Source: an archaeon (GTDB lineage: Archaea > Iainarchaeota > Iainarchaeia > Iainarchaeales > JAAZKV01). From it: a stretch of DNA of 57,111 nucleotides. The stretch lies in assembly GCA_036170245.1 (NCBI GenBank), contig JAVHOV010000007.1, forward strand, positions 1 through 57,111, given 5' to 3'. The position numbers and the translations under genes are program-made. This document shows, one piece after another, positions 11,376-48,720 of this stretch; positions within the stretch are counted from its first letter, which is position 1; each line of letters opens with the position of its first letter. The notes under the pieces were generated by a model. That model saw only the letters and a program-made list of their open reading frames with translations. It made no database searches and was not told the origin of the DNA.

Positions 11376-12791
11376 ATGAAAAGAGAAGAAACAATAGAAT
11401 TTTTTGTTGAGAATGCAAAAAAGGATTTTTCAGTTGTTGAAAAAAACCTTGCTCAAATTATCGGCGAAATAAAAGACAGTGAAAGAAAGGGGTTAAATTA
11501 TATTGAAGAATTTGATGCTAAAGATGTTTTAAATCAGTTGGCTGAATTAAAGAAGAGTTTTGAAAAAAAAGATTCAAAATATTATGGGCGATTGTTTGGG
11601 GTTCCTGTTACTGTTAAGGATGCAATTTGCGTTAAGGGAATTGAATCAAAAGCCGGTTCAAAGATTCTTAAAGGCTATAAGCCTCTTTTTGATGCAACTG
11701 TAATAGAAAGAGCAAGAAGAGAAGGGGCAATAATTTTAGCAAAAACCACTCAGGATGAATTTGGTTTTGGAACATTTTCAACTCACACAATTAAAGTTCC
11801 AAAGAATCCTTTTGATTCAGAACGTTCTTGCGGTGGTTCAAGTGGTGGGGCGGCTGGATTCACTTCTTTTACAAAGTCATATCACGTTGCAATTGGGGAA
11901 AGTACTGGCGGATCAATTGCGTGTCCTGCATGCTTTTGCGGTGCGGTTGGTTTCACTCCGACTTACGGGTTAGTTTCCAGATTTGGTTTGATTGATTATG
12001 CAAATTCTCTTGACAAGATTGGAGCTATTGGAAGAAATGTTAGTGATGCTTCACTGTTACTTGAAGTAATTAGTGGTCTTGATGAGAAAGATTCAACTTC
12101 ACTAGGTAATGGGTTTGAAAGAGCTGAAGTTTTGCTCAAAAGAATTGCAGTTGTAAAAGATTTTTTCCAAAACTGTGATGCTGATGTAAAAAAAGTAATT
12201 CAAAATAAAATTAATGAATTGAAAAAATTTTATATTGTTGAGGAAGTTTCTCTGCCTCTTAATATTGAGTATGCTTTAAGTGCATATTATGTTATTGCAA
12301 CTAGCGAAGCTTCAACTAACCTTGCAAAACTTTCTGGATTAAGATATGGTGTTCAGGATGATGTTGAAGGAAAGCACTTTGATGAATATTTTTCAGAAAT
12401 TAGAAGCAAAGAATTTAGTGAAGAAGCGAAGAGAAGAATAATTTTAGGGACATTTGCAAGAATGAGTGGATTTAGAGATGCTTATTATTTGAAGGCAATG
12501 AAAGTTAGAACTAAATTAATTGAAGAATTTAATACAGCATTTGAAAAATATGATTTGTTAATTTATCCGACAATGCCTACAATTGCTCCAAAATTTATTG
12601 ATATTGAAAAATTGACTCCTATGCAGAATTTTGCGATGGATCTTTGCACAGTTCCTTCAAACTTAGCTGGTCTTCCTCATATTAGTGTTAATGCTGGAAG
12701 AGTAGGGAATATTCCTGTTGGTTTGATGATAGTTGCACCTCATTTGGAAGAAAAACGATTATACTCTCTTGCAAAGGTGATTGAAGAATGA
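11376..12791 (+). CDS. gatA: Asp/Glu-tRNA amidotransferase subunit A (amidase family)
   Basis: Amidase signature GGSSGGAAGF...GESTGGSIACPA. Its stop overlaps the gatB start (ATGA). Confidence 0.9.
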   Translation: MKREETIEFFVENAKKDFSVVEKNLAQIIGEIKDSERKGLNYIEEFDAKDVLNQLAELKKSFEKKDSKYYGRLFGVPVTVKDAICVKGIESKAGSKILKGYKPLFDATVIERARREGAIILAKTTQDEFGFGTFSTHTIKVPKNPFDSERSCGGSSGGAAGFTSFTKSYHVAIGESTGGSIACPACFCGAVGFTPTYGLVSRFGLIDYANSLDKIGAIGRNVSDASLLLEVISGLDEKDSTSLGNGFERAEVLLKRIAVVKDFFQNCDADVKKVIQNKINELKKFYIVEEVSLPLNIEYALSAYYVIATSEASTNLAKLSGLRYGVQDDVEGKHFDEYFSEIRSKEFSEEAKRRIILGTFARMSGFRDAYYLKAMKVRTKLIEEFNTAFEKYDLLIYPTMPTIAPKFIDIEKLTPMQNFAMDLCTVPSNLAGLPHISVNAGRVGNIPVGLMIVAPHLEEKRLYSLAKVIEE

Positions 12792-14197
12792 CTGATAATA
12801 CAAGCATAATGATTGGTCTTGAAGTTCATGCATACCTTGGAACTAAATCAAAATTATTTTGTTCCTGTTCGTCCTCTGCAACAAATATTCCAAATTCTCA
12901 AGTTTGCCCGATTTGCCTGGGGCACCCTGGAAGTAAGCCAGTGCTAAACGAAGCAGTAGTGGGACTTGCAACAAAGGTCGGTCTTGCATTAAAATGTAAA
13001 ATCAATGAAGATTTTTTCTTTTCAAGAAAAACTTATTTTTATCCTGATATGTGCATGAATTACCAAATTACTCAGTATGAGGTTCCTATTTGCGGGCCGG
13101 GAGAATTAGTTCTTCCAAGCGGGAAAAAAATTAGGATCCGAAGAGCTCACATTGAATGGGATCCCGCAGCTTTAATTCATCCAAATGGAATGGGAAAAAG
13201 TAATTACGTTTTGATTGATTACAATAGATCGGGCTTGCCATTAATTGAAATTGTAACAGAACCGGATATTTCTTCTCCTGCTGAAGCAAGAGAATTTATG
13301 AATACTTTAGAAAATATTTTAAATTACTTGAGGGTATTAAGGCCTGATACTACTCTGAAAGCTGATTGTAACATTTCAATTAACGGTGGGAACAGAGTTG
13401 AAATAAAGAATGTTTCGGGGTTTGCTGCTGCAGAGAAAGCTCTTACTTACGAATTTTCAAGACAGAAGAATGAAGTAAAAATGGGCAGAGTAATTGAGCA
13501 GCATACTCGTGCATATAATGCGGAGAGCGGAGTAACTAACGAATTAAGAAAAAAAGAGACTGAAGATGATTATGGTTATATTTTTGATCCTGATTTGGTA
13601 AAAGTTTCGTTGAGCAAAACTTTCATTGATGCAGTGAAAAATGAAATGCCTGAACTTCCTGAAGAGAAAGTGGCAAGATTGAAGAAAGAATTTAATTTTT
13701 CAGATTATGATGCTAGTGTTTTGTGCGGGGATTATTATTTAGGAAAACTTTTTGATGAAATGATAAAGTTAAAATCAGATTCAGTGGTTTCTGCAAGATT
13801 GCTTACTCGAGAATTGCTTTCAGTATTAAACCATGATTCGATTTCTTTAAGTGAAATAAAAATTAATCCTCTTGATTTAGTCGAACTTGTGAATTTAATT
13901 AAGGAAGGAAAAGTTTCTGACAAGAATGTAAAACAGTCAGTGATTAATTATATTTCAGGGGATAAATCTTCTCCTAAACATTTTTTGGAAAAGAATAACT
14001 TGCTTATTTCAACAACTATTGATTTGGATGCTATTATAGAGAAAGTTATTGTTTCAAATGAGAAAGCAGTAACTGATTATAAGTCAGGAAATGAAAAGAG
14101 TTTCAACTTTTTAGCAGGTTTAATCATGCGTGAAACTAAGGGGACGGTCTCTCCTCAAAAAGTTCAGGAAGTTCTAAAACAAAAACTTTCCAATTAA
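12788..14197 (+). CDS. gatB: Asp/Glu-tRNA amidotransferase subunit B
   Basis: IGLEVHAYL, CPICLGHPGSKPVLN, RAHIEWDPA and a C-terminal YqeY-like tail. Confidence 0.9.
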   Translation: MTDNTSIMIGLEVHAYLGTKSKLFCSCSSSATNIPNSQVCPICLGHPGSKPVLNEAVVGLATKVGLALKCKINEDFFFSRKTYFYPDMCMNYQITQYEVPICGPGELVLPSGKKIRIRRAHIEWDPAALIHPNGMGKSNYVLIDYNRSGLPLIEIVTEPDISSPAEAREFMNTLENILNYLRVLRPDTTLKADCNISINGGNRVEIKNVSGFAAAEKALTYEFSRQKNEVKMGRVIEQHTRAYNAESGVTNELRKKETEDDYGYIFDPDLVKVSLSKTFIDAVKNEMPELPEEKVARLKKEFNFSDYDASVLCGDYYLGKLFDEMIKLKSDSVVSARLLTRELLSVLNHDSISLSEIKINPLDLVELVNLIKEGKVSDKNVKQSVINYISGDKSSPKHFLEKNNLLISTTIDLDAIIEKVIVSNEKAVTDYKSGNEKSFNFLAGLIMRETKGTVSPQKVQEVLKQKLSN

Positions 14198-17313: not shown

Positions 17314-17402
17314 TGGGCAGGAGGAGATTTGAACTCCTGACCGCACGATTACTGATATTTTAATTATCAGTCGTGTGCTCCAACCAGCTGAGCTACCCGC
17401 CC
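17314..17402 (-). tRNA. tRNA-Ile (anticodon GAU) with about 15-nt intron at the canonical 37/38 position
   Basis: Minus-strand cloverleaf. Acceptor GGGCGGG/CCUGCCC, D-arm GCUC-AGCUGGUUG-GAGC, anticodon stem CACGA/UCGUG, loop CUGAUAA interrupted by AUUAAAAUAUCAGUA (17350-17364), T-arm AGGAG-UUCAAAU-CUCCU. The intron UAUCAG pairs with CUGAUA. Confidence 0.85.
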
Positions 17403-17593: not shown

Positions 17594-18505
17594 ATGGATG
17601 CCTTTTCCATTTTTGATAATGCTCATACTTGGTTAAATAGAGGGGTTTTTGTTCATGGAACTTCTTTTGAGATAAAAGAAATCCTATTGCATCTTACTAT
17701 TCCTTTTGTTATTAAAAAACTCAAAATAAAATACAATAAATTAAAAGAATGGGCAAGCGGTAGAAAGCCAATTTCAATTAGCGACCTAACAAAATTAGTT
17801 GAATTATGCCCCGTTGATTTAAGTAATTCCATAAAGTCAAAATTGAGTCTAAAGGACTTACGATTTAGTTGTAAATACTCCCCTCATAAAGTAAAATTCC
17901 CCTTAACTATTTCTGAAAATTTAGCATACATTATAGGAATTATACTTGGCGATGGGACTTTAAGCGGAAATAAAAATAAAAAGAAAAGTTGGGTAATAAG
18001 GGTTTATTTTGATAATCTTCAGCACAGACTAATTTTTAATGAATTAATGGAGAAAGAATTTGGAATACAACCAATTAATAGCCAAAGAAAAAAGAATTGC
18101 TTTGAATCAACAATAGCTTCAAAAATTATTTATCTTTATATTAGCAATTATTTTAATTTACATGTTGGGAGAAAAGCAAATAAAATAGAGTTCCCAAATA
18201 ACTTACTTAGCGGATCTAATGAGATAAAATGTGCTTTAATCCAAGGGTTATTTGATTCTGATGGAACAATAACTCACGGCGCAGTCAAATATTCAACAAC
18301 AAGTAAGATAATGGCTGAACAAGTCAGAACAGTTCTTTTGGAAATGAACATAGATACAGGGCTAAATGTTTGGCTTAAAGATGCAAAATACTTTCCTTTA
18401 TATATAGTTTCGATAAAATCAGGGAAGAATAAACTGATTTTTGCAGAAAAAATTGGGTTCAAACACCCAATTAAAAAGATTTTGCTTGAAGATTTATTTT
18501 ATTAG
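17594..18505 (+). CDS. Double-motif LAGLIDADG homing endonuclease, free-standing
   Basis: LAGLIDADG motifs LAYIIGIILGDGTL (about 17921-17962) and ALIQGLFDSDGTI (about 18233-18271). N-terminal extension of about 110 aa. The stop codon at 18503-18505 overlaps tRNA-Gln nt 1-2. Confidence 0.85.
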   Translation: MDAFSIFDNAHTWLNRGVFVHGTSFEIKEILLHLTIPFVIKKLKIKYNKLKEWASGRKPISISDLTKLVELCPVDLSNSIKSKLSLKDLRFSCKYSPHKVKFPLTISENLAYIIGIILGDGTLSGNKNKKKSWVIRVYFDNLQHRLIFNELMEKEFGIQPINSQRKKNCFESTIASKIIYLYISNYFNLHVGRKANKIEFPNNLLSGSNEIKCALIQGLFDSDGTITHGAVKYSTTSKIMAEQVRTVLLEMNIDTGLNVWLKDAKYFPLYIVSIKSGKNKLIFAEKIGFKHPIKKILLEDLFY

Positions 18506-28361: not shown

Positions 28362-30293
28362 TTAGCCTTTTACAATTAGTATTTCTTTCTTTAATAATTC
28401 GCTAAGTATTTTTCCATCCACTCCTTTGAGTGAACTTTCTTTCATCAAGTCTCCCATTAGTGGTCCTATTGCACCCATTCCTTTTGCTTTTACTAATCCT
28501 TCATTTTTCTTTATGACAATTTGAATAGTTTTTTGGATTTCTTTAGTATCAACTTTGTTGTTTTCTTTTGATAGTATTATTTCTTCCAGTGTTTTTCCTT
28601 TTGAAATTTCAATAACAGCTTCACTTAAATCATTTTTAGATATTTTTCCTTTGCTTTCAGAAAGTAGTAATTGTCTCAAATCTTCGTTAGTTATTTTTTC
28701 TATTTGTATATTGTTTCTCTTTAGTTCAGTTAGAGTTTGAAGTAATAATCCTGCAGCAACTTTTGGATTTGCTCCTTGTGCAATTAATTCCTCAAAGAAT
28801 CTAGCAAAATTATTTAGTTTCATTTCTTCAACGTGGTTTGTGCTTAATCCTAGTTTTGTGTAATATTCTTCTCTTTCTTTTACGCTTTTTGGTAATCCTT
28901 TTTTTAGAACAGTAACATATTTTGGATCAATTTCTCTGAATGGTATATCAGTTTCAGGGTACATTCTTGCTTCCCCTGCAATTGGCCTTTGGTATTCGCT
29001 TGAACCGTCTTCAAGTGCTCCTCGTGTTTCCATTGGAACTTTTTCAAATGCAACTTGTGTTCTAGCTTTTATTGCTTCAAATGCTTTCTCTGCTCTTTCT
29101 TTCTCTGCTACAATTAAAATAAAATTATCTTCATTATTGCACTTCAGTGCTTTAACTATTTCATCAACTTCTTTTTGAGTGATTCCGTAATTTGGCAATT
29201 CATCTCTGTGAAGCAGTCCGCTAACTCCTGTAGCTTTTCCATATGCACTTAATTCAGAACCAAATCTCTTTGCTCCAACTTTTTCTCCTAAAATTCCTTT
29301 CATTTTGTTTAATTTGATCCCAAATACTGTTCGTGGTGAAGCCGTCGCTTCACTACGCCCTGCAAAAGCCCCTGCTTTTGCTGGGTTGCCTTTAACGAAT
29401 TTGCATTCAGTGTTTTTGAAAATGTTTGTTACTTCCATTTCGTTTTGGAATATTTCTTCTCTTTCTTTAGCATTAAATTTTTTGTTCAAAATTTCTTTAA
29501 TTTTAAGTAAATCAACTTGTCTTTCTGCTTCGCATTCAACAACAGTTTTTATTTGTTCAAGATCCTGGCATCCCTTAATTTCGCATCTGTTTCCCTCTGC
29601 GATTGAAACATTAACATCCTGTCTGATAGTTCCTTTTCCTCTTTTTGTGCTGCATGTTAGTCTCATTAGTTCTCCAATCTTTTTGGCGGTTTCGAAAGCT
29701 TCTTCTGGCGTTTTAATATCAGGGTCAGTTGCTAGTTCAATTAATGGAATTCCAAGTCTATCTAAATTGTAGTAAATTTTTCCTGCTTCTTTTTTTATTG
29801 GTCTTGCTGCATCTTCTTCTAGAACTATAGTTTGTACCCCTATTCTTTTTTGTCCTTCGCTTGTTGGAATATTCAGTTCTCCGCCTAAGGATACTAGGGT
29901 AGTTCTCTGAAATGCGCTAGTGTTTGATCCGTCAATTACTGTTTTTCTCATTGTAACAAGTTTATCCACTGGGTGCGAGTTGCATAACAGTGATACTTCA
30001 AGAACAGTTTTTAGTGCTCCCTCATCCATTTCTTGGGGAGGTTCTTCATCTAGTTCAATTAGTGAAATGTTTTCTTTTTTTCCTGAGTAATAAAATGTTT
30101 CGTTTCTTTTGAATGCATCAAGGGCAGTTTTATCGTATTCTCCTAGTTCGCTTGCAACCGGTCGGAGTTTTCTTTCTACAGTAAAATCAAATTCGTCGCT
30201 TAATACACTTGGTGTTCGCATAAATAGTTTTCCAGTGTCAAGCTGTTGGTGTACTTCAAGTCCGACTTTTAGTCCAAGTTTTTTATAATCCAT
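28362..30293 (-). CDS. gatE: Glu-tRNA(Gln) amidotransferase subunit E
   Basis: GLKVGLEVHQQL, a GatB/E catalytic core and a C-terminal GatB/YqeY-like tail. 643 aa. Confidence 0.9.
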   Translation of the reverse strand: MDYKKLGLKVGLEVHQQLDTGKLFMRTPSVLSDEFDFTVERKLRPVASELGEYDKTALDAFKRNETFYYSGKKENISLIELDEEPPQEMDEGALKTVLEVSLLCNSHPVDKLVTMRKTVIDGSNTSAFQRTTLVSLGGELNIPTSEGQKRIGVQTIVLEEDAARPIKKEAGKIYYNLDRLGIPLIELATDPDIKTPEEAFETAKKIGELMRLTCSTKRGKGTIRQDVNVSIAEGNRCEIKGCQDLEQIKTVVECEAERQVDLLKIKEILNKKFNAKEREEIFQNEMEVTNIFKNTECKFVKGNPAKAGAFAGRSEATASPRTVFGIKLNKMKGILGEKVGAKRFGSELSAYGKATGVSGLLHRDELPNYGITQKEVDEIVKALKCNNEDNFILIVAEKERAEKAFEAIKARTQVAFEKVPMETRGALEDGSSEYQRPIAGEARMYPETDIPFREIDPKYVTVLKKGLPKSVKEREEYYTKLGLSTNHVEEMKLNNFARFFEELIAQGANPKVAAGLLLQTLTELKRNNIQIEKITNEDLRQLLLSESKGKISKNDLSEAVIEISKGKTLEEIILSKENNKVDTKEIQKTIQIVIKKNEGLVKAKGMGAIGPLMGDLMKESSLKGVDGKILSELLKKEILIVKG

Positions 30294-30865: not shown

Positions 30866-32215
30866 TTATTCCTCGGTGTAAGTATCAGTTCTTGTGAATG
30901 GAGTTATTTCTCCTCTTAAGTTCTTTGATAATAGTTCTTTAGCTTCTTTTGCAGAATAATTTCCAAGAAGCCAAGATAATTTCATAATGGCAGTTTCTGG
31001 TAGCATATCTTCACAGTACATTGCGCCAGTTGCAGCAACTTTTCGTAAATTAGTATAAACAGTTGAACTTACTCTTCCGTTTAAGCATTGTGAAGTTATT
31101 CCTACAATGCATCCACTTTCAACTAATTCTTTTAATGCTTTAATGAATGAATCATTTTCTCTTATTGGAGTGTGTCCTAGTCCCGTTCCTTCAATAATAA
31201 GTCCTTTATATTTTTCTTTTTTGTAAAATTCAAGTTCTTTTTCACTGACAAAAGGATGCATTTTAATTAATCCTACTTTTTCTTCAAAATTGTTTATTAA
31301 TTTAAAATTCCCTTTTTGTTTTTCAAATTCATTTTTGTCTTTTATCCATTTTATTTCTTTTGTTCGATAATCAACTAGTGCAATTGGTGTGTCATTTATT
31401 GCTTTAAATGCATCTCTTCTTGAAGTATGCATTTTTCTTACTTTTGTAGCATTAAGTATTGCACAATTATCATCGTTTGTAGAGTTGTGCATGCATACTG
31501 CAACTCCCTTGTAATTTGTTTTTGTAATAAACAATCCAGCGCAAATTAAATTCATTGCAGCGTCAGAACTTCCTCTATCTGAACTTCTTTGTGCTCCGAC
31601 AATTATTACAGGTATTGGACAATTCTCAAGTTCAAATGCGAGTGCAGCTGCGCTGTATCCAAGCATATCCGTTCCGTGTCCGATGATTATTCCCTTTACT
31701 CCTTTTTTTATTTGTTCAGCAACGGTTTGGGAAATTTTTTTCAAATGCACTGTTTGTATATCTTCTGACATCATATTTGCAACAAAAACAGATTCAATGT
31801 TTGCTATTTTTGCTAGTTCCGGAAACATTGTAATTAAATCTTCTAAATTAAATGAGGCGCTTACTCCTCCACCTGAGTAGTTTACTCTTGAAGCAATTGT
31901 TCCTCCAGTGTGGAGTATTGCAATTGTTGAAAGGGTTGGATCTTTTTTGATTTCAATTGTTTTTGCTTTTCCTACTGCCTTTGCTTCGCCTAAAGATTTT
32001 ACATTTTTTATTTTTGTAGTCAAGAATCCTGCATTGTATCCTGAATCAAGTTTAATCATTACTATTTCTTCATTTTTGTCAGAAGGAATTATTATTCCTT
32101 TTATTTTGTTTCCTTCAAAATCAAATTCTATTGAGTTTCCTTCGTTTATAGAATTTTTTTTGTAGAATTCTGTGTTATTCATTTTGATTCCCTTCTGATA
32201 ATTAATTAATTCCAT
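30866..32215 (-). CDS. gatD: Glu-tRNA(Gln) amidotransferase subunit D (asparaginase-like)
   Basis: HTGGTIAS, GHGTDMLGY and an asparaginase fold. 449 aa. An alternative ATG lies at 32182. Confidence 0.9.
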   Translation of the reverse strand: MELINYQKGIKMNNTEFYKKNSINEGNSIEFDFEGNKIKGIIIPSDKNEEIVMIKLDSGYNAGFLTTKIKNVKSLGEAKAVGKAKTIEIKKDPTLSTIAILHTGGTIASRVNYSGGGVSASFNLEDLITMFPELAKIANIESVFVANMMSEDIQTVHLKKISQTVAEQIKKGVKGIIIGHGTDMLGYSAAALAFELENCPIPVIIVGAQRSSDRGSSDAAMNLICAGLFITKTNYKGVAVCMHNSTNDDNCAILNATKVRKMHTSRRDAFKAINDTPIALVDYRTKEIKWIKDKNEFEKQKGNFKLINNFEEKVGLIKMHPFVSEKELEFYKKEKYKGLIIEGTGLGHTPIRENDSFIKALKELVESGCIVGITSQCLNGRVSSTVYTNLRKVAATGAMYCEDMLPETAIMKLSWLLGNYSAKEAKELLSKNLRGEITPFTRTDTYTEE

Positions 32216-41540: not shown

Positions 41541-42254
41541 TTGCCAGTTACTTTGAGAAGACATTTAGCAACAGTTAAAATTAAGGGAGAAAGAGTAGTT
41601 CCGCTAGGGGCAAAGAAAGCAGGGATTAAAGCAGGCAGAGGGTTGCTTAATAGGTATGGAGTAAATTTAGTTAAGAGTTATTCTAGTTCAGCTGAGAGAG
41701 CATTTCTTGGGGCAAAAACTGCTCAGAAGGCATTTGGAATAAAAAAAGGAAAGATTCCTGTTAGAAGTTCTATTAATTTTTCTAATTTTTTTGTTGATGA
41801 AAAGAAGGCAATGGAAGTTTTGGAAAAGCAATATGGGAATGATGAGGTTAAAGCAAGAGATGCTTGGCTAAGAGGAGATAATTTCAAAGGATCACTTCAT
41901 CCAGCAAAACAGTATGCTGAAAATATTATAAAAAACAGATTTGGTTTTGCTTTGGCTGCTGAAGCAGGAAAAGCTGGGGCAGGAACTAAAGGAGTTCCAA
42001 GAAGAGTCTTAATGGATAATGTGACTCACTCATGGATTATTGAGTCAGTTGTAGCAAGATTAACTAAAGGTATGAAGCGTGCTCCAAAAATGGTTGGGCT
42101 TCCAAAAGAAACAACTGGTATTGAAATGACTTTCAAAAAACAACCTAATGGAAAGTTTAAAGTAAATATGAATTATGAAGAATTTGCTGGCGATGTTACA
42201 AAGAACTTTGCTCAGTGCATGCCTTCAGCAGTTAAGAAATACTTGGACCTTTAA
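41541..42254 (+). CDS. Hypothetical basic protein (TTG start)
   Basis: 237-aa K/G/A-rich ORF. AGGTGA lies 6 nt upstream of the TTG. No family recognised. It is immediately upstream of the giant PEP-utiliser gene. Confidence 0.4.
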   Translation: MPVTLRRHLATVKIKGERVVPLGAKKAGIKAGRGLLNRYGVNLVKSYSSSAERAFLGAKTAQKAFGIKKGKIPVRSSINFSNFFVDEKKAMEVLEKQYGNDEVKARDAWLRGDNFKGSLHPAKQYAENIIKNRFGFALAAEAGKAGAGTKGVPRRVLMDNVTHSWIIESVVARLTKGMKRAPKMVGLPKETTGIEMTFKKQPNGKFKVNMNYEEFAGDVTKNFAQCMPSAVKKYLDL

Positions 42255-42362
42255 ATCCAAGTACTTTAATTTTTTCTAAAAAGCAGTTATTTTTTTTGCT
42301 TTTCAAGTGGATTAGAAATCTTTAATAAATGAATTTTAGCATAATTCTGGTAGTGTTTGGTA

Positions 42363-43304
42363 ATGGAATCGGTTCTTTTGAAATGGTTTAGTAATCTTTC
42401 AAAAGAGAGCGTTGGCGAAGCTGGTGGTAAAGGAGCTTCTTTAGGAGAAATGACTAAAGCAGGTATTCCTGTTCCTAATGGTTATGTTATTTTAGCTTCT
42501 TCTTTTGAAAAGTTTTTAGAAAGTACAGATCTTAATGTTGAAATTGATTCAATTTTAGAAAAAGTGAATCATAAAGAAATGCAGTCAATTGAGAGTGCTT
42601 CTGAAGAAATTCAAGCATTGATAATGAATGCAAAAATGCCAAAGGATATTGAGAAAGAAATTGTTATTAGTTTTAAAAAATTGGATTCTGTTTTTGTTGC
42701 GGTTCGTTCAAGCGCAACTAGTGAAGATTCATCAAGTGCAGCTTGGGCTGGACAACTTGACAGTTTCCTTAATACAAAATCAGATACTTTGCTTGAGAAT
42801 GTAAAAAGATGCTGGGCATCACTTTTCACTCCAAGAGCAATTTTTTACAGATTTGAAAAAGGATTGCATGATGCAAAAATAAGTGTTGCAGTTGTAGTTC
42901 AAAAAATGGTTAATTCAGAAATCAGCGGAATTGCTTTTTCAGTTCATCCTGTTACTCAGGATAGAAATCAATTAATTATTGAAGCAGGTTTAGGTTTAGG
43001 TGAAGCAATAGTTTCTGGGCAAATTACTCCTGATTCTTACGTTATTGAAAAAGTTCCAAGAAGAATAATTGATAAAAATATAAGCGAACAAGAGAGAGGA
43101 TTATTTAAAGTTGAAACTGGAGGAAGCGAGTGGAAAGAAAATCTTCCAAGAGGAAAAGAGCAGAAACTTTCTGACAAACAAATAATGGAACTTGCTGAAA
43201 TAATTTTAGGAATAGAAAAGCACTATGGTTTTCCTTGCGATATTGAGTGGGCATTTGAAGGTGGAAAGTTTTTCATAGTTCAGTCAAGACCAATTACAAC
43301 TTTG
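42363..43304 (+). other. Domain: PPDK_N-type ATP-grasp nucleotide-binding domain of the giant ORF
   Basis: The motifs listed for the parent CDS. Ends at QSRPITTL. Confidence 0.8.
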
Positions 43305-46300
43305 ACTGACAAATCAAACGATAAAGAAATGCCTAGTGTAGTTAAGGCAAAGGAAAGTGAAAAGAAAGCTGAAGTTGAAGTAAAAAGTACAAAAAAAGAA
43401 GAAAATGATTTAACTTGGGCAAAGAATTATTTGGAATCAAATGAATTTGATATTAAGGAAGCAAGGTTTGCAATTCCTGTTGTAGAAATAATTTTCTCAG
43501 TGTACGCTAAACCAAATTGTTTAGGGGATGAGTATGGTCCTGTGTTTGTCCCTTATTCAAATCAAAAGGGAAAACAGATTCTGCATCTTGAAAATTATAA
43601 GAACCTTGAGAGGCATTCTTGGATTGAAGCGATTAAGAATAGAAAGAAATTTATCAAAGTGCTAAAGGGAGCTACAAAGATTCAGAAAAAGATTAATTCA
43701 ATTGCAGTTCCTATAGATAAGCTTTGCAAATTGAATCAGAAGAAACTTCACTCTTATTACAAATCTTTGGTAAAGCTTTCACTTGCGTGGTGGGAGTATG
43801 GTTCAATTGCTGAGGATAAGGGTTTGGTTGTTGAAGAAAAATTAGTTCCATTAATAATGAAGAATCACGCTGTGTCAAAAGAAACTGCTTTTGAATATGT
43901 TTCTGACATGACTACTCCTCTTGAAATTTCTATTTTCAGTAAAGAGAGAATGAATTTTTTGGATCTTTGCATAAAGGTAAAGAAGAATCCAAAACTTATA
44001 GAAAAAAGAGATAAGAAATTCTTTAAGGAATTAAACAAGTATTCAAAGAATTACTTTTATGCAAGAACCTCTTTTTACGAAGCTCTTACATTAAACGAAG
44101 GAAATTTGGTGAAGCTAATTAAGGATACAATTGAAAAGAATTCTTTTGAATCTCTAAAAGATGAATTCACTAAATTTTCTATAGGAATTAAACACTTAAA
44201 GGAAAAACAAAAAGAGTACAAAAAATTATTCACTCCAACAAAGGAAGAGAAGGATTATTTGTGGTATTTTACAATAATGCACTCTTGGCAGGATGAGAGA
44301 AAAGTAAGTATGATGACTCACTTCAATTACTTCTGCGAATTATTAAGAGAAGTTTCAAACAGAACAAAAGTTGATTATGATACTGTTGCTTTAATGACCC
44401 TTGAAGAAGTTGAATCATTGATTCTTGGAAAAAAGCTTGGCATAAAATCAATTGAATCAAGAAAAGAGGGATTGTTTTTTGTTTATAAAAATAATAAAGT
44501 TCTTCGCTTCTTTGGTGAAGATGCAAAATCATTAGTGGAATCAATTCCTTCTGCAGTCAAATCAATGGATTTAATTCGTGGAGCAGTTGCTTGCAAGGGG
44601 AAAGGTGGAAAAGTTAGAGGTAAAGTTAGAATAGTTCACAATCCTGCAAAAGATGTTTTCAACGAGGGTGAAGTTTTAGTAACAACAATGACTCGCCCAG
44701 AGTTTGTTCCAATAATGCAAAAAGCTTTGGCAATTGTTACAAATGAAGGTGGATTAACGTCCCACGCAGCAATTGTTTCAAGAGAGTTAGGTATTCCTTG
44801 TGTTATTGGAACTAAAGTTGCGACTCAAATTCTAAAGAATGGTGATTTAGTTGAAGTTGATGCGGAAAAAGGAATTGTAAAAAAAATAAGTGAAAAAAAT
44901 GATTCTGCAGTTTCTGACTTAAAAAAAAATGATAATGGATTTGGAAAATTAAATAATTATTATTTAGTTGATGGAAAAGAAAAGGATAAATTAATAGCTG
45001 ATGCAAAGAAAATAAAATGGAAATATTGGTTGAATAGGCCCTATACAGTTTTTTGGGCAACAACTTTTTGGAAAGGAGTGAATTCAAAGTATTTTTCAAG
45101 AGCAGGCTTTGAAGGACTTGGAGCTGACAGTAATCTTTACCAATTCCCTGACATTTACGTTGATGAGGATTTTCATAAGAAAGGTGCAGTTTTCATAGAG
45201 AATTATTTCAAGAACCATAAAATGAGTGATCTTTCAAAAATGCTTTTTGAATTGCATAAAGATCATTTAAATAAATTGAAGCAAATTGTTGAAGATAAAA
45301 ACAAATCAATTTCACAAAAGACTTTAGAGTCTTCTGAGCTTATTAGGGATTATATTCCTTATTTGTGGATTACTATTCCTCTTGAAGAGTATTTTAATAA
45401 AAGAATTGTAGCAGAGGTTCCAAAATATATCAAAGGGGATTATTCAAAATTCATTGGGGACGTTAGTATTCCAAAGAAAAAGAATGCTTATGTTTTAATG
45501 CAGGATGAATTAAGAAAACAAACTCCTCTTGAAGAGGTTCAAAAGAAATTTGGATGGATAAAGTCAAGAGATGGTTTCACTGATTTTTACACTGTTGATG
45601 AATTGAAGGAAATAAAAGAGAAACTATCTGATTCAGTTTCTCCTAGTGTAAATGTTCCAAAAGAATTGGCTAATCTTGTTGATGAGTTAAAAGAACTTAC
45701 TTTTTTTAGAGCAGACAGAACTGACAAGTTCTATGAATATTTTGGAATTGCTCGTCCCTTTCTGAAGGAAATTGCAGAATATATTGGAGTGGAATTTAAG
45801 GAACTTGCTGAGTATGATGCAAATTCAATAATTTTGGGTAAACCTATTAAGTATTCTCAAAATTTTAATTATATTTCCATAAACAATGATTACTGCCTTG
45901 AGTCAGAAGAGAAATTTATTGATTTTAGTGCATTGATTTCAAATGAAGTAAAAGGAATTGTTGCTTTTAAGGGAAAAGCCAGGGGGGCAGTAAAAATAGT
46001 CACTCATCCAAATGATGTGAAAAAAGTCAATGAAGGGGATATTTTAGTTTCCCAAATGACTCTTCCATCATTTATTTCTGCAATGCAAAAAGCCAGTGCG
46101 TTTGTTACTGATGAAGGAAGTATTACTTGTCACGCTGCAATCATTGCCCGAGAGATGAAAAAACCTTGCATAACAGGAACAAAAAATGCGACAAAAGTTT
46201 TATGTGATGGAGACTATGTTGAAGTTGATGCAGAGAAGGGAATTGTTAGAATTATTTCAAAATCTAGTGAAAATACCTTGCTTGGAAGGATTGAATATAA

Positions 46301-48047
46301 AAAAGTTTATTCAAGAAATTTTTCAGTCTTAAGAATGCAGTTTCTGAGTGATGGTGCATATTATTCAATAAAAGAGCTTACAAACGGAAAGTATTACTTT
46401 ACTCCACTTTTTATCAAAAGTTCTGATGAAGTGGTTAATGCTTATTATGATTTCTCTTCTCCCGAGCAGGATCCTAAAAAGATACTTTCTTACTTGAATG
46501 AAAATATTCCTTTTGTAAAAGAAAAGTTTTCAGAAATAAAAATTGTTTGCGCGAAAGTGAATGAAATAATAAAGAAAAATGATTTTTCAAAAGCAAGGTT
46601 TGTTTTTGATAGTGTGAAAAAGGTTCAGCCGTTTAGTACACTCGGAAAATTGATTGGAGAAGTTCCTAATCCTCCAAAAGATTTGTTTGATATCTTTGCA
46701 GGATTTAGGTTTGACTATGATGGGTTAATGTATAGGGCTGAAAAGTTCTTGCTTGATAGTGCAAATAAAAAAGGATTTGATGATGCTGATTATTTGACTT
46801 TTGAAGAAATTTTTGAAGGAATTGAAGCAAAGAATCTTCTAGAACGTAAAAAAGGATTTGTGTTTTTCAGAGGAGAAATAGTTTTGCTTGAAGATAAGGA
46901 TGAGTTTCTTAATAAAAATAATATTATAATTAAAGATCAAGATTTTGGCAAAACTAGTGATTTTTCGCTAAAGAAAGTTGAAAAATCCATTTCAAGGGAT
47001 TTGCCGCTGTCCAATAGTTATGTATGGCATTATGGCTATTCTGAAGGAATGCTAAAAGAACTTGAGTGGAGGTATTCTGACACTATTTTCTATCAGCATG
47101 AAGGGCACGTTGACATTATTCGCGACCCAAATGAGCAAAATGTTTTGTTTAAGGAATTTGTTTATAGCAAAATTAAATCTTCGAAAGATTGGTTTTCAGC
47201 TCTTTCAAAGCGCTATTCTGATCTTCTAAATGAAGCAGATGATTTTTATAAAAAGAATAATTCTATTGATAAGAAATCAAATAAGAAAATTGCGAAAATA
47301 CTTTTGGAATATAATTTGTTAATCGGAAAAATAATGGGTCCTTTTATTGTGATGTACTGGATTCCTAATTGGTTTGAAAAAGAATCTGATCTAAAAAAAG
47401 AAATTGGAATTGCGATTAAATATAGGAAAGCTTCTGAAGATATTTTTCCAAAAGGAGATGAACTTGTAAGAAAGATTCTTGGTCGAGTAGAAAATGAATT
47501 AAAATTGGAAAAAGGTTTAAAGAATTTTATTAGTTACTCTGAATTGCTGAATTTTTTGACCAAAGGGGTATTGCCTGACAATAATTTGCTTGTTAAAAGA
47601 AAAGAAGGAATCATTTTTTCAAATGCAAGTTTAATGGCTGTAAATGAAGATAATTTGGATGTTGAACTTGCAAAGCTTGGATACTATTATGAAAGAATAT
47701 CCCAAGATAAAGTTAGCCAAATAAAAGGGCAGAGTGCTTTTAGAGGCAAAGTATGTGGCAAAGTAAAAATAATTCTAAATAAGCATGAAATAAAGAATTT
47801 TCCTCAAGGTTGTGTCTTGGTCTCCTCAATGACTACTCCTGAATATGTTCCTGCGATGAATAAAGCAATCGCATTTGTAACTGATGAAGGCGGAGTGACT
47901 TGCCACGCAGCAATTGTTTCAAGGGAACTAAAAGTTCCTTGCATTGTTGGGGCTAAAATTGCTACTAAAGTTTTGAACAACGGTGATTTAGTTGAAGTTG
48001 ATGCGAATAGCGGAATTGTCAAAATACTAGAAAAATCAAAAAAGTGA
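42363..48047 (+). CDS. Giant PEP-synthase/PPDK-family protein: one N-terminal ATP-grasp (PPDK_N) domain, three PEP-utiliser phosphohistidine swivel domains, no PEP/pyruvate TIM-barrel domain
   Basis: An uninterrupted ORF (ORF track 42357-48047; first ATG at 42363). N-terminal motifs are [50 protein letters not shown] and [20 protein letters not shown]. There are three copies of G(G/S)xT(S/C)HAAI(V/I)(S/A)RE...PC(V/I)xG. Confidence 0.85.
   Translation: [1894 protein letters not shown]
44574..44888 (+). other. Domain: phosphohistidine swivel (PEP-utilisers mobile) domain 1; catalytic His codon at 44763-44765
   Basis: [21 protein letters not shown]...[44 protein letters not shown]...[10 protein letters not shown]. 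Confidence 0.8.
45948..46256 (+). other. Domain: phosphohistidine swivel domain 2; His codon at 46131-46133
   Basis: [18 protein letters not shown]...[44 protein letters not shown]...[10 protein letters not shown]. Confidence 0.8.
47721..48029 (+). other. Domain: phosphohistidine swivel domain 3; His codon at 47904-47906
   Basis: [18 protein letters not shown]...[44 protein letters not shown]...[10 protein letters not shown]. Confidence 0.8.
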
Positions 48048-48108: not shown

Positions 48109-48720
48109 ATGGATGAAAAGATTTTTGAAGAGATAAAGACTTTAGCAAAGCCTTTTTTGCTTGAGGGTAAATCAGAGGACTTAATGCATTCTTTGAGCGT
48201 GGCTGAGAGTGTTAAGATTCTTGCAGATGATGAGAGTCAGCTTGATATTTTGTTGCCATTTGCGGTGTTGCATGACACTGGGAACTCTTTTGTATTAAAG
48301 GAAGATTTGCATTATATCCAAGGTAAAACAATAGTTGAGAATGGGAAATTATTTCATGGTCTTGCTGGTGCAAAAATCGCGTTTAAGATACTCTCTTTGA
48401 TAAATTATGATTCAGAAAAGACTAGGGAAATAATTGATTTAATAAAGGTTCATGATTTTGATGACCCTAAATTTTTTACTAAACGAGTTTGGCAGATTGC
48501 AAAAGATGCTGATTGTTTAGATCGAATGAATATACCTCGATTAAAGGAAATGATGAAGACAAGGGGCATGTCTCCAATTCAAATTCTTGATCTTGTTAAG
48601 AGTGTAAATCTTTGGTTCTTTACTCAAAACGCGTTGGTTGAATTCAATAAAAGGCAGAATGCTTTTTTTGAAGAATTTCAACTTGACAAGAATTTGATGA
48701 TAAAACCCAAAATTGTTTAA
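48109..48720 (+). CDS. HD-domain metal-dependent phosphohydrolase
   Basis: HSLSVAESV ... AVLHDTGN ... VHDFDD motifs. GTGGTGA precedes the ATG. It starts 61 nt downstream of the giant ORF. Confidence 0.6.
   Translation: MDEKIFEEIKTLAKPFLLEGKSEDLMHSLSVAESVKILADDESQLDILLPFAVLHDTGNSFVLKEDLHYIQGKTIVENGKLFHGLAGAKIAFKILSLINYDSEKTREIIDLIKVHDFDDPKFFTKRVWQIAKDADCLDRMNIPRLKEMMKTRGMSPIQILDLVKSVNLWFFTQNALVEFNKRQNAFFEEFQLDKNLMIKPKIV

Follow-up and report, generated by a model that had tools for sequence, protein, structure and literature searches.

Rifampin phosphotransferase (RPH) and its relatives are dikinases that divide the use of ATP between two sites: in RPH, PpsAB and HpeHI, the swivel His takes the β-phosphate of ATP, the γ-phosphate is hydrolysed, and the phospho-His domain swings to a second site, where the substrate is phosphorylated on a hydroxyl (PMC4844700; PMC12167813). 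The parts do not have to be joined in one chain, since the ATP-grasp protein HpeI charges HpeH, composed of a domain like the rifampin-binding domain and a swivel, in trans and without a stable complex, and PpsAB and CreHI behave as HpeHI does (PMC12167813). RPH has about 850-900 residues, with one binding domain and one swivel, and the two-component dikinases HpeHI, CreHI and phenylphosphate synthase PpsAB each combine one ATP-grasp head with a single module, their substrates being phenolics in the catabolism of aromatics. To our knowledge, the characterized members of the phosphoenolpyruvate (PEP)-utilising/RPH superfamily have one swivel per head. The window considered here, 57,111 nucleotides of contig JAVHOV010000007.1 from an archaeon of the order Iainarchaeales, contains a giant gene (42363-48047, forward strand) that departs from this rule, because its 1,894-residue product carries three swivels and four binding-domain units behind a single head. 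On the present analysis, this product is best explained as a cytosolic multi-module small-molecule dikinase of the RPH/two-component dikinase kind.

The open reading frame (ORF) is complete and runs through 1,894 codons to its stop without any internal one, as an earlier model-made, sequence-only reading of this DNA (the preliminary description) had stated, and an in-frame TTG upstream of its start, at 42357, would lengthen the product by two residues. A Pfam scan of the protein found PF01326 (PPDK_N) once, at residues 19-323 (E 1e-97), PF00391 (PEP-utilizers) three times (overall E 1.2e-78) and no PF02896, the PEP/pyruvate TIM barrel, even at E<=1, which is precisely the domain count that the preliminary description had anticipated. 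The ATP-grasp head (residues 1-325; 42363-43337) aligns end to end with the archaeal PpsA 8a8e (E 2e-75) and with RPH-Lm (E 1e-58), and its K23, R115 and S134 sit at the positions of Lys22, Arg117 and Thr136 of RPH-Lm. The swivels occupy residues 746-847 (44598-44903), 1201-1303 (45963-46271) and 1792-1894 (47736-48044), with the catalytic His801, His1257 and His1848 encoded at 44763-44765, 46131-46133 and 47904-47906, so that the His codons lie exactly where they had been placed. All three swivels have an intact GGxT[S/C]HAAI motif (GGVTCHAAI in one of them) and they are 57-67% identical to each other by BLAST, while the spacers that separate them are rich in K (12-16%) and also show an elevated share of F and Y. 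Nothing in the protein resembles a transmembrane segment. The remaining Pfam matches (Epimerase_2, CTD6, FilE_C and other weak ones) fall below threshold and are taken as spurious, Epimerase_2 (residues 771-862) moreover overlapping swivel 1, and the same applies to the labels PF02350, PF01989 and PF07059 precomputed for homologues, which are likewise below threshold.

Residues 1-846 constitute a complete RPH-like unit, with ATP-grasp domain, helical binding domain and swivel in the order known from RPH-Lm (PDB 5FBS/5FBT/5FBU/5HV1) and from the PRK06241 dikinases (PigC/RedH/HapC), and it conserves both the catalytic residues of the RPH ATP-grasp domain and the T[S/C]H motif. Unlike RPH, the giant protein of this DPANN archaeon then continues into two more units of binding domain and swivel, the last of them with a duplicated short binding domain, which gives the layout G-L-S-M-S-(s-s)-S (head, L-type domain, swivel, M-type domain, swivel, two S-type modules, swivel). 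It is not an RPH orthologue, nor is rifampin implied as a substrate, since its scores against the NCBIfam RPH equivalogs NF041857 and NF000283 (443 against a cut-off of 999, and 315 against 1700) are both too low. From PpsA and PPDK (pyruvate phosphate dikinase), with which it shares the PF01326 head (closest to archaeal PpsA 8a8e), the swivel and the T-[S/C]-H motif, it differs in having RPH-type binding domains in place of the PF02896 barrel and three swivels instead of one; the absence of the barrel agrees with the earlier statement that this is not a PEP-making enzyme.

What, then, are the spacers? They had been described as three modules of about 350-490 residues and of unknown family. 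Their lengths are 420, 353 and 488 residues, the third spacer consists of two tandem modules of about 240 residues, and the lack of a family no longer holds, given that spacer 1 is matched by Foldseek to the RPH rifampin-binding domain and the others are linked to it by profile comparison. Spacer 1, of the L type, spans with its linker residues 326-745 (43338-44597). Its AlphaFold2 model, built from a 12-sequence alignment, has a pLDDT (predicted local distance difference test) of 87.2 and a predicted template-modelling (TM) score of 0.83, and a Foldseek search of the PDB reached a probability of 1.00 only with the RPH-Lm entries 5hv2, 5fbu, 5hv3 and 5hv1, two of them at E<=0.001, with query TM-scores of 0.42-0.47 over 397-446 columns; the next match lies at E 0.2 with a TM-score of 0.13. 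At the sequence level, identity to the RPH binding domain is near noise (11-13%), and the profile match is weak (E 0.5) and colinear, covering RPH residues 606-731 just ahead of the swivel. This weak alignment sets the motif D644-x-R646-K647-x-x-M650 (44292-44312), at least 90% conserved in 24 homologues, against R666-E667-x-x-K670-x-x-M673 of RPH-Lm, pairing D644 with E667, K647 with K670 and M650 with M673, so that an acid takes the place of Glu667 and a Lys that of Lys670. The second phosphotransfer of RPH requires Arg666 and Glu667, and Lys670 belongs to the same network (PMC4844700). Judged by its model, spacer 1 is a predicted fold homologue of the RPH rifampin-binding domain, in line with the RPH-like character that the preliminary description had proposed.

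BLAST finds no similarity among the three spacers of the giant protein, and their relationships were approached through a wider set, namely the 391 spacers of the best 120 homologues (1,047-3,111 residues) of a protein search that returned 735 matches at E<=1e-10 among 8,000 candidates scored. The lengths of these spacers are bimodal (about 225-275 and about 325-425 residues). Both halves of spacer 3, the S-type modules 3a (residues 1304-1538; 46272-46976), which lacks a swivel of its own, and 3b (residues 1539-1791; 46977-47735), match single spacers of about 250 residues in other proteins, and the S-type profile matches 124 of the 391, among which 391 there are 12 double units of this type, so that the double unit is a recurrent variant and not an accident of the giant gene. 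By hhalign, 3a and 3b are related at 97%, spacer 1 and 3b at 90%, and spacers 1 and 2 at 84% over 276 columns (75% over the 100 C-terminal columns). The AlphaFold2 model of residues 1304-1894 (pLDDT 89.5) shows two similar α/β units, of which 3a is confidently built at model residues 7-221, followed by a short disordered linker and the swivel. In a Foldseek search with 3a, 3b and swivel 3 together, RPH-Lm takes the top five places and four of these matches span 268-392 columns, compared with only about 120 columns where PPDK and enzyme I are matched through the swivel alone; this speaks for the S type being a shortened form of the RPH-type binding domain, without being proof of it. Spacer 2 (residues 848-1200; 44904-45962), the M type, has the invariant residues R1116, R1119, T1120 and D1121, with R1119 aligning to R646 of spacer 1, and is a probable distant homologue of spacer 1 on the basis of profile comparison and this motif. 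Every spacer keeps its own invariant Arg and acidic residues.

The architecture is far from unique, contrary to what the preliminary description implied. Among the best 120 homologues, 119 carry two to seven swivels and all but two have a single N-terminal head; the layouts are G-S3 (64 proteins), G-S4 (21), G-S2 (18), G-S5 (10), G-S6 (2), G-S7 (1), G-S (1) and irregular (3), the extreme being P0008, with seven modules fused in 3,111 residues. Those matches among the 120 that have a named source are all from candidate phyla radiation (CPR) bacteria (Parcubacteria, Paceibacterota, Buchananbacteria, Patescibacteria) or DPANN archaea (Woesearchaeota, Nanoarchaeota, "archaeon"). As to its being previously undescribed, searches of a library of PubMed Central and bioRxiv papers brought up no account of multi-swivel dikinases, nor is there one in the DPANN protein-family paper and the "giant genes" preprint, which leaves an architecture that is common in databases and apparently uncharacterized. 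The Archaeovorins of Omnitrophota, which also contain PPDK_N, were considered and set aside as a different kind of protein. In two rare cases, P0080 (S5-G) and P0091 (S3-G-S), the order is permuted, with the head C-terminal or nearly so. Where the head stands can thus vary, in agreement with a charging of modules regardless of chain order.

Several observations indicate that the modules behave as units. The x[S/C]H motif is kept in 385 of 395 swivels of the family, one and the same spacer type occurs at differing positions in different proteins, and swivel identity tracks the type of the adjacent spacer (0.63-0.87 between proteins, against 0.556 for different modules within a protein), from which it follows that spacer and swivel evolve together as one unit, or cartridge. 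Such units also exist on their own: an exhaustive HMMER scan with the spacer-1 profile gave 2,165 clusters (50% identity) at E<=1e-3, and most of the top matches are proteins of about 490-515 residues in which the spacer takes up residues ~4-405 and leaves room only for a swivel, so to all appearances headless cartridges. A fully split arrangement is that of locus L007, a tight operon with overlapping stops and starts in which two modules (475 and 484 residues), a PPDK_N-only head of 314 residues and two further modules (366 and 509 residues) follow one another, that is, one head to four modules. Module genes also follow giant genes directly in L002, L010, L011 and L014. The combination of binding domain and swivel is thus a portable cartridge, stand-alone or in fused arrays, which is quickly gained and lost. 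As in HpeHI, CreHI and PpsAB, head and module are separable, with the difference that in the giant gene they are fused (the split form being found in L007, L002, L010 and L014), that there are three modules here and up to seven in relatives, and that the hosts are organisms of minimal metabolism with no linked catabolic genes. Transposase (DDE_Tnp_1), Bro-N and integrase (rve) genes adjoin giant dikinase genes in L010 (3057-4946) and L011 (4881-5930), and these mobile-element neighbours may be linked to the rapid gain and loss of modules.

The same behaviour is visible at the locus itself. The giant gene occupies a slot in a conserved block with the order PurF, PfkB kinase, S-adenosylhomocysteine hydrolase, tRNA-Pro, SIMPL, an ORF without family match, dikinase and prolyl-tRNA synthetase (ProRS). 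In the relatives L004, L005 and L006, whose ProRS is 89-94% identical, the slot holds 845 residues (G-L-S, one swivel), 853 residues (G-L-S, one swivel) and 1,233 residues (G-S-S, two swivels), respectively; in L014, placed by gene order alone, it holds a 1,341-residue G-S-S protein plus a 462-residue module gene (three swivels), in this window the 1,894-residue protein (three swivels), and in L002 a protein of 2,021 residues plus module genes of 814, 474 and 433 residues (seven swivels). The search for orthologues and domain-count variants that the preliminary description had called for has hence brought up variants from one to seven swivels. At each of the six syntenic loci there is exactly one head, and the module content changes faster than the surrounding genome. 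The closest orthologues, those of L004 (85% identical) and of L005, consist at this locus of the first unit alone and stop 6-8 residues past swivel 1, just where the giant protein continues into the next linker; that single-module ends coincide with the linker start indicates that new cartridges are appended at natural protein ends.

How would such a protein work? With modest confidence, we lean towards a scheme in which the one ATP-grasp head charges the three swivels in parallel and each of them phosphorylates a small molecule held in its own spacer. The N-terminal head would bind ATP; the swivel His would attack the β-phosphate, the γ-phosphate leaving as Pi, with release of AMP and formation of phospho-His; and the swivel would then move to the binding domain just upstream and phosphorylate the small molecule held there on a hydroxyl. 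The predicted phospho-His dikinase reaction, deduced from sequence, is ATP + substrate + H2O -> AMP + Pi + substrate-phosphate, presumably the same dikinase chemistry as in PpsA and PPDK. His801, His1257 and His1848 would be charged in parallel by the single head and each swivel would serve a different binding domain (L-type, M-type and double S-type), so that three, possibly four, different substrates would be phosphorylated. Most likely, the protein would serve to inactivate or trap variable small molecules from the environment or from hosts, in keeping with the rapid turnover and shuffling of modules, which suggests substrates that depend on environment or host (xenobiotics, antibiotics, nutrients). 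Parallel charging is favoured because there is a precedent for charging in trans, because one head goes with many modules in split, mixed and fused loci alike, and because the catalytic residues are conserved in every module. Of the two schemes offered by the preliminary description, that of one head serving several units of substrate module and His is accordingly the one that gained ground from the split operon L007, the stand-alone modules and the trans-charging dikinases, whereas an intramolecular phosphorelay lost it, as each module keeps its own conserved binding domain.

There are, however, points that weigh against this scheme. Some swivels lie more than 1,000 residues from the head, and charging may take place between protomers instead of in cis. 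The swivels of a protein are not homogenised (0.556 within, against 0.50-0.565 between proteins), so a signal of shared docking is missing, and the one-swivel-per-pocket rule is not strict, given that 3a has no swivel of its own. As for the binding domains, the TM-scores between spacer 1 and RPH are moderate, with a root-mean-square deviation of about 10 Å, the profile match to the RPH sequence is as weak as stated above, and in that alignment RPH Arg666 faces a hydrophobic position while the invariant R646 is offset by 3 residues. The profile of spacer 2 did not retrieve RPH among PDB sequences, its sole match being unrelated (E 0.19). Finally, the neighbouring genes are housekeeping genes and give no pointer to a substrate.

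The modules might act in concert, phosphorylating a single polymer, glycan, lipid or protein at several sites in the way that glucan water dikinase acts on starch. Fusion into a single chain would favour a common target, 3a and 3b share one swivel, and swivel-type dikinases working on polymers are known, as glucan water dikinase itself illustrates; but a module order that is shuffled, a module number that goes from one to seven between near relatives and modules that are often separate genes fit independent units better, and the Pfam scan detected no carbohydrate-binding or other polymer-binding domain in the giant protein, all of which makes concerted action unlikely. It is also improbable that only the unit of residues 1-846 is catalytic and that modules 2 and 3 have a regulatory, sensory or scaffolding role or are in decay. 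The extra modules are indeed dispensable in relatives, as L004 and L005 show by holding just the first unit, yet the full motif stands in all three swivels, modules 2, 3a and 3b retain residues that are invariant across the family, the models of spacer 1 and of 3a, 3b and swivel 3 are confident and well folded, and the His is kept in nearly every family swivel. Transfer of phosphate from His to His occurs in the phosphotransferase system, from enzyme I to HPr, and three swivels in series could likewise form a relay from the head through His801, His1257 and His1848 to one final acceptor. We consider this highly improbable: each of the swivels has a conserved binding domain of its own ahead of it, stand-alone modules with a binding domain share an operon with a single head in L007, the ATP-grasp component charges the characterized homologues directly, and we know of no swivel-to-swivel transfer in the RPH-like dikinase family.

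Next to no weight can be given to the remaining explanations, namely that the protein is a genuine PEP synthase or PPDK with its TIM barrel supplied by another gene, or that the gene is an assembly chimera of paralogues. The former draws on the NCBIfam model NF005057 ("phosphoenolpyruvate synthase"), which scores 675 against a cut-off of 598; this score is reached because the head and three swivels add up, no barrel being matched, and the NCBIfam PpsA and PPDK matches cover the head and swivels only, while the spacers are of RPH type. The latter starts from the fact that metagenome assemblies can be chimeric, and the preliminary description had itself named a chimeric or collapsed assembly as a possible refutation. 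Self-similarity of the DNA within the ORF is restricted to swivel-coding stretches of about 210 bp with 67-75% identity, too divergent for a repeat collapse or a chimeric join, and the GC content is even along the gene. The exact protein occurs on 5 contigs, including one of NCBI GCA_036170195.1 with the same DNA throughout the ORF and 3 kb of flank to either side, although these assemblies may share reads. Diverged orthologues are a stronger argument than such duplicates. P0002 (65% identity) and the giant protein are colinear as far as residue ~1525, 81% of the latter, beyond which P0002 diverges into a single S-type unit, L-type-like sequence and a third swivel, and P0003 and P0007 are G-S-S proteins covering the first 69%. 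With no barrel, RPH-type spacers, divergent repeats and a fused order kept in diverged orthologues, both the PEP synthase with a barrel in trans and the chimera were rejected.

The NF005057 score above cut-off has a practical consequence, since automatic pipelines will give the name of PEP synthase to barrel-less proteins of this kind, and such misnaming overstates the gluconeogenic capacity of DPANN and CPR genomes. If parallel charging is true, one head serving several His carriers with different pockets would be an organisation not described for the PEP-utilising/RPH superfamily. A broader reading, which we regard as tentative and rather doubtful, is that of a cartridge system in DPANN and CPR, with one "charger" and 1-7 interchangeable cartridges per locus, fused or split and shuffled across two domains of life, which would provide these metabolically minimal symbionts with a customisable repertoire to inactivate or trap many different small molecules of hosts or competitors; units such as 3a-3b would there be cases of one swivel serving two pockets, and the modular kinase logic would be comparable to that of nonribosomal peptide synthetase and polyketide synthase assembly lines. 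Parallel charging is in itself a natural extension of the two-component dikinases, the spacers have a known fold and the giant protein is one of hundreds; what is unexpected is that CPR and DPANN organisms should have a kinase with many cartridges to one head, and a hypervariable number of them. The family is large, as the number of spacer-1 clusters indicates, and its named matches are concentrated in organisms of poorly understood physiology whose genomes are otherwise stripped down, and yet keep dikinase genes of 2-9 kb. This retention, and module counts that differ even where genomes are near-identical, suggest that the function is adaptive and bound up with environment or hosts. For biochemistry and biocatalysis, the modules represent a ready-made library of new small-molecule phosphotransferases.

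With regard to the gene neighbourhood, PADLOC defence models matched neither the giant protein nor its two neighbours. Immediately upstream, a 237-residue ORF without family match (41541-42254, forward strand) keeps its position and evolves fast, being 44% identical to its counterpart in L004 and 30% to that in L002 against 80-93% for the flanking housekeeping proteins, and it is absent from L005. Directly downstream lies a gene for a 203-residue HD-domain protein (48109-48720, forward strand). A homologue (36% identical) neighbours a pair of multi-module dikinase genes in L011, and a further one is part of the syntenic block in L014, but closer homologues in L013 and L015 are unlinked to dikinases, for which reason an obligate partnership was rejected and any association is weak. 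Genes of the His_Phos_1, HAD, HD and NUDIX types are found within a few genes of giant dikinases in several unrelated loci (L008 871-1500 and 10993-11583; L011 2545-3138 and 4146-4697; L012 3156-3596 and 12373-13047), at a frequency uncorrected for background; such phosphohydrolases could hint at a cycle of phosphorylation and dephosphorylation.

The rest of the window has archaeal content, with genes for Nop56/58, GatD/GatE, deoxyhypusine synthase, an ATP-dependent DNA ligase and an intron-containing tRNA. GatA (amidase)/GatB and the archaeal GatD/GatE are both encoded (11376-14197, forward; 28362-30293 and 30866-32215, reverse), which gives this archaeon, in spite of its small genome, both of the tRNA-dependent amidotransferase systems. 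An 89-nucleotide tRNA-Ile(GAU)-like gene (17314-17402, reverse strand), found by Rfam and missed by ARAGORN, has a 16-nucleotide insertion at the canonical archaeal intron position, and adjoining it is an ORF of 303 residues with a LAGLIDADG_3 domain (17594-18505, forward strand).

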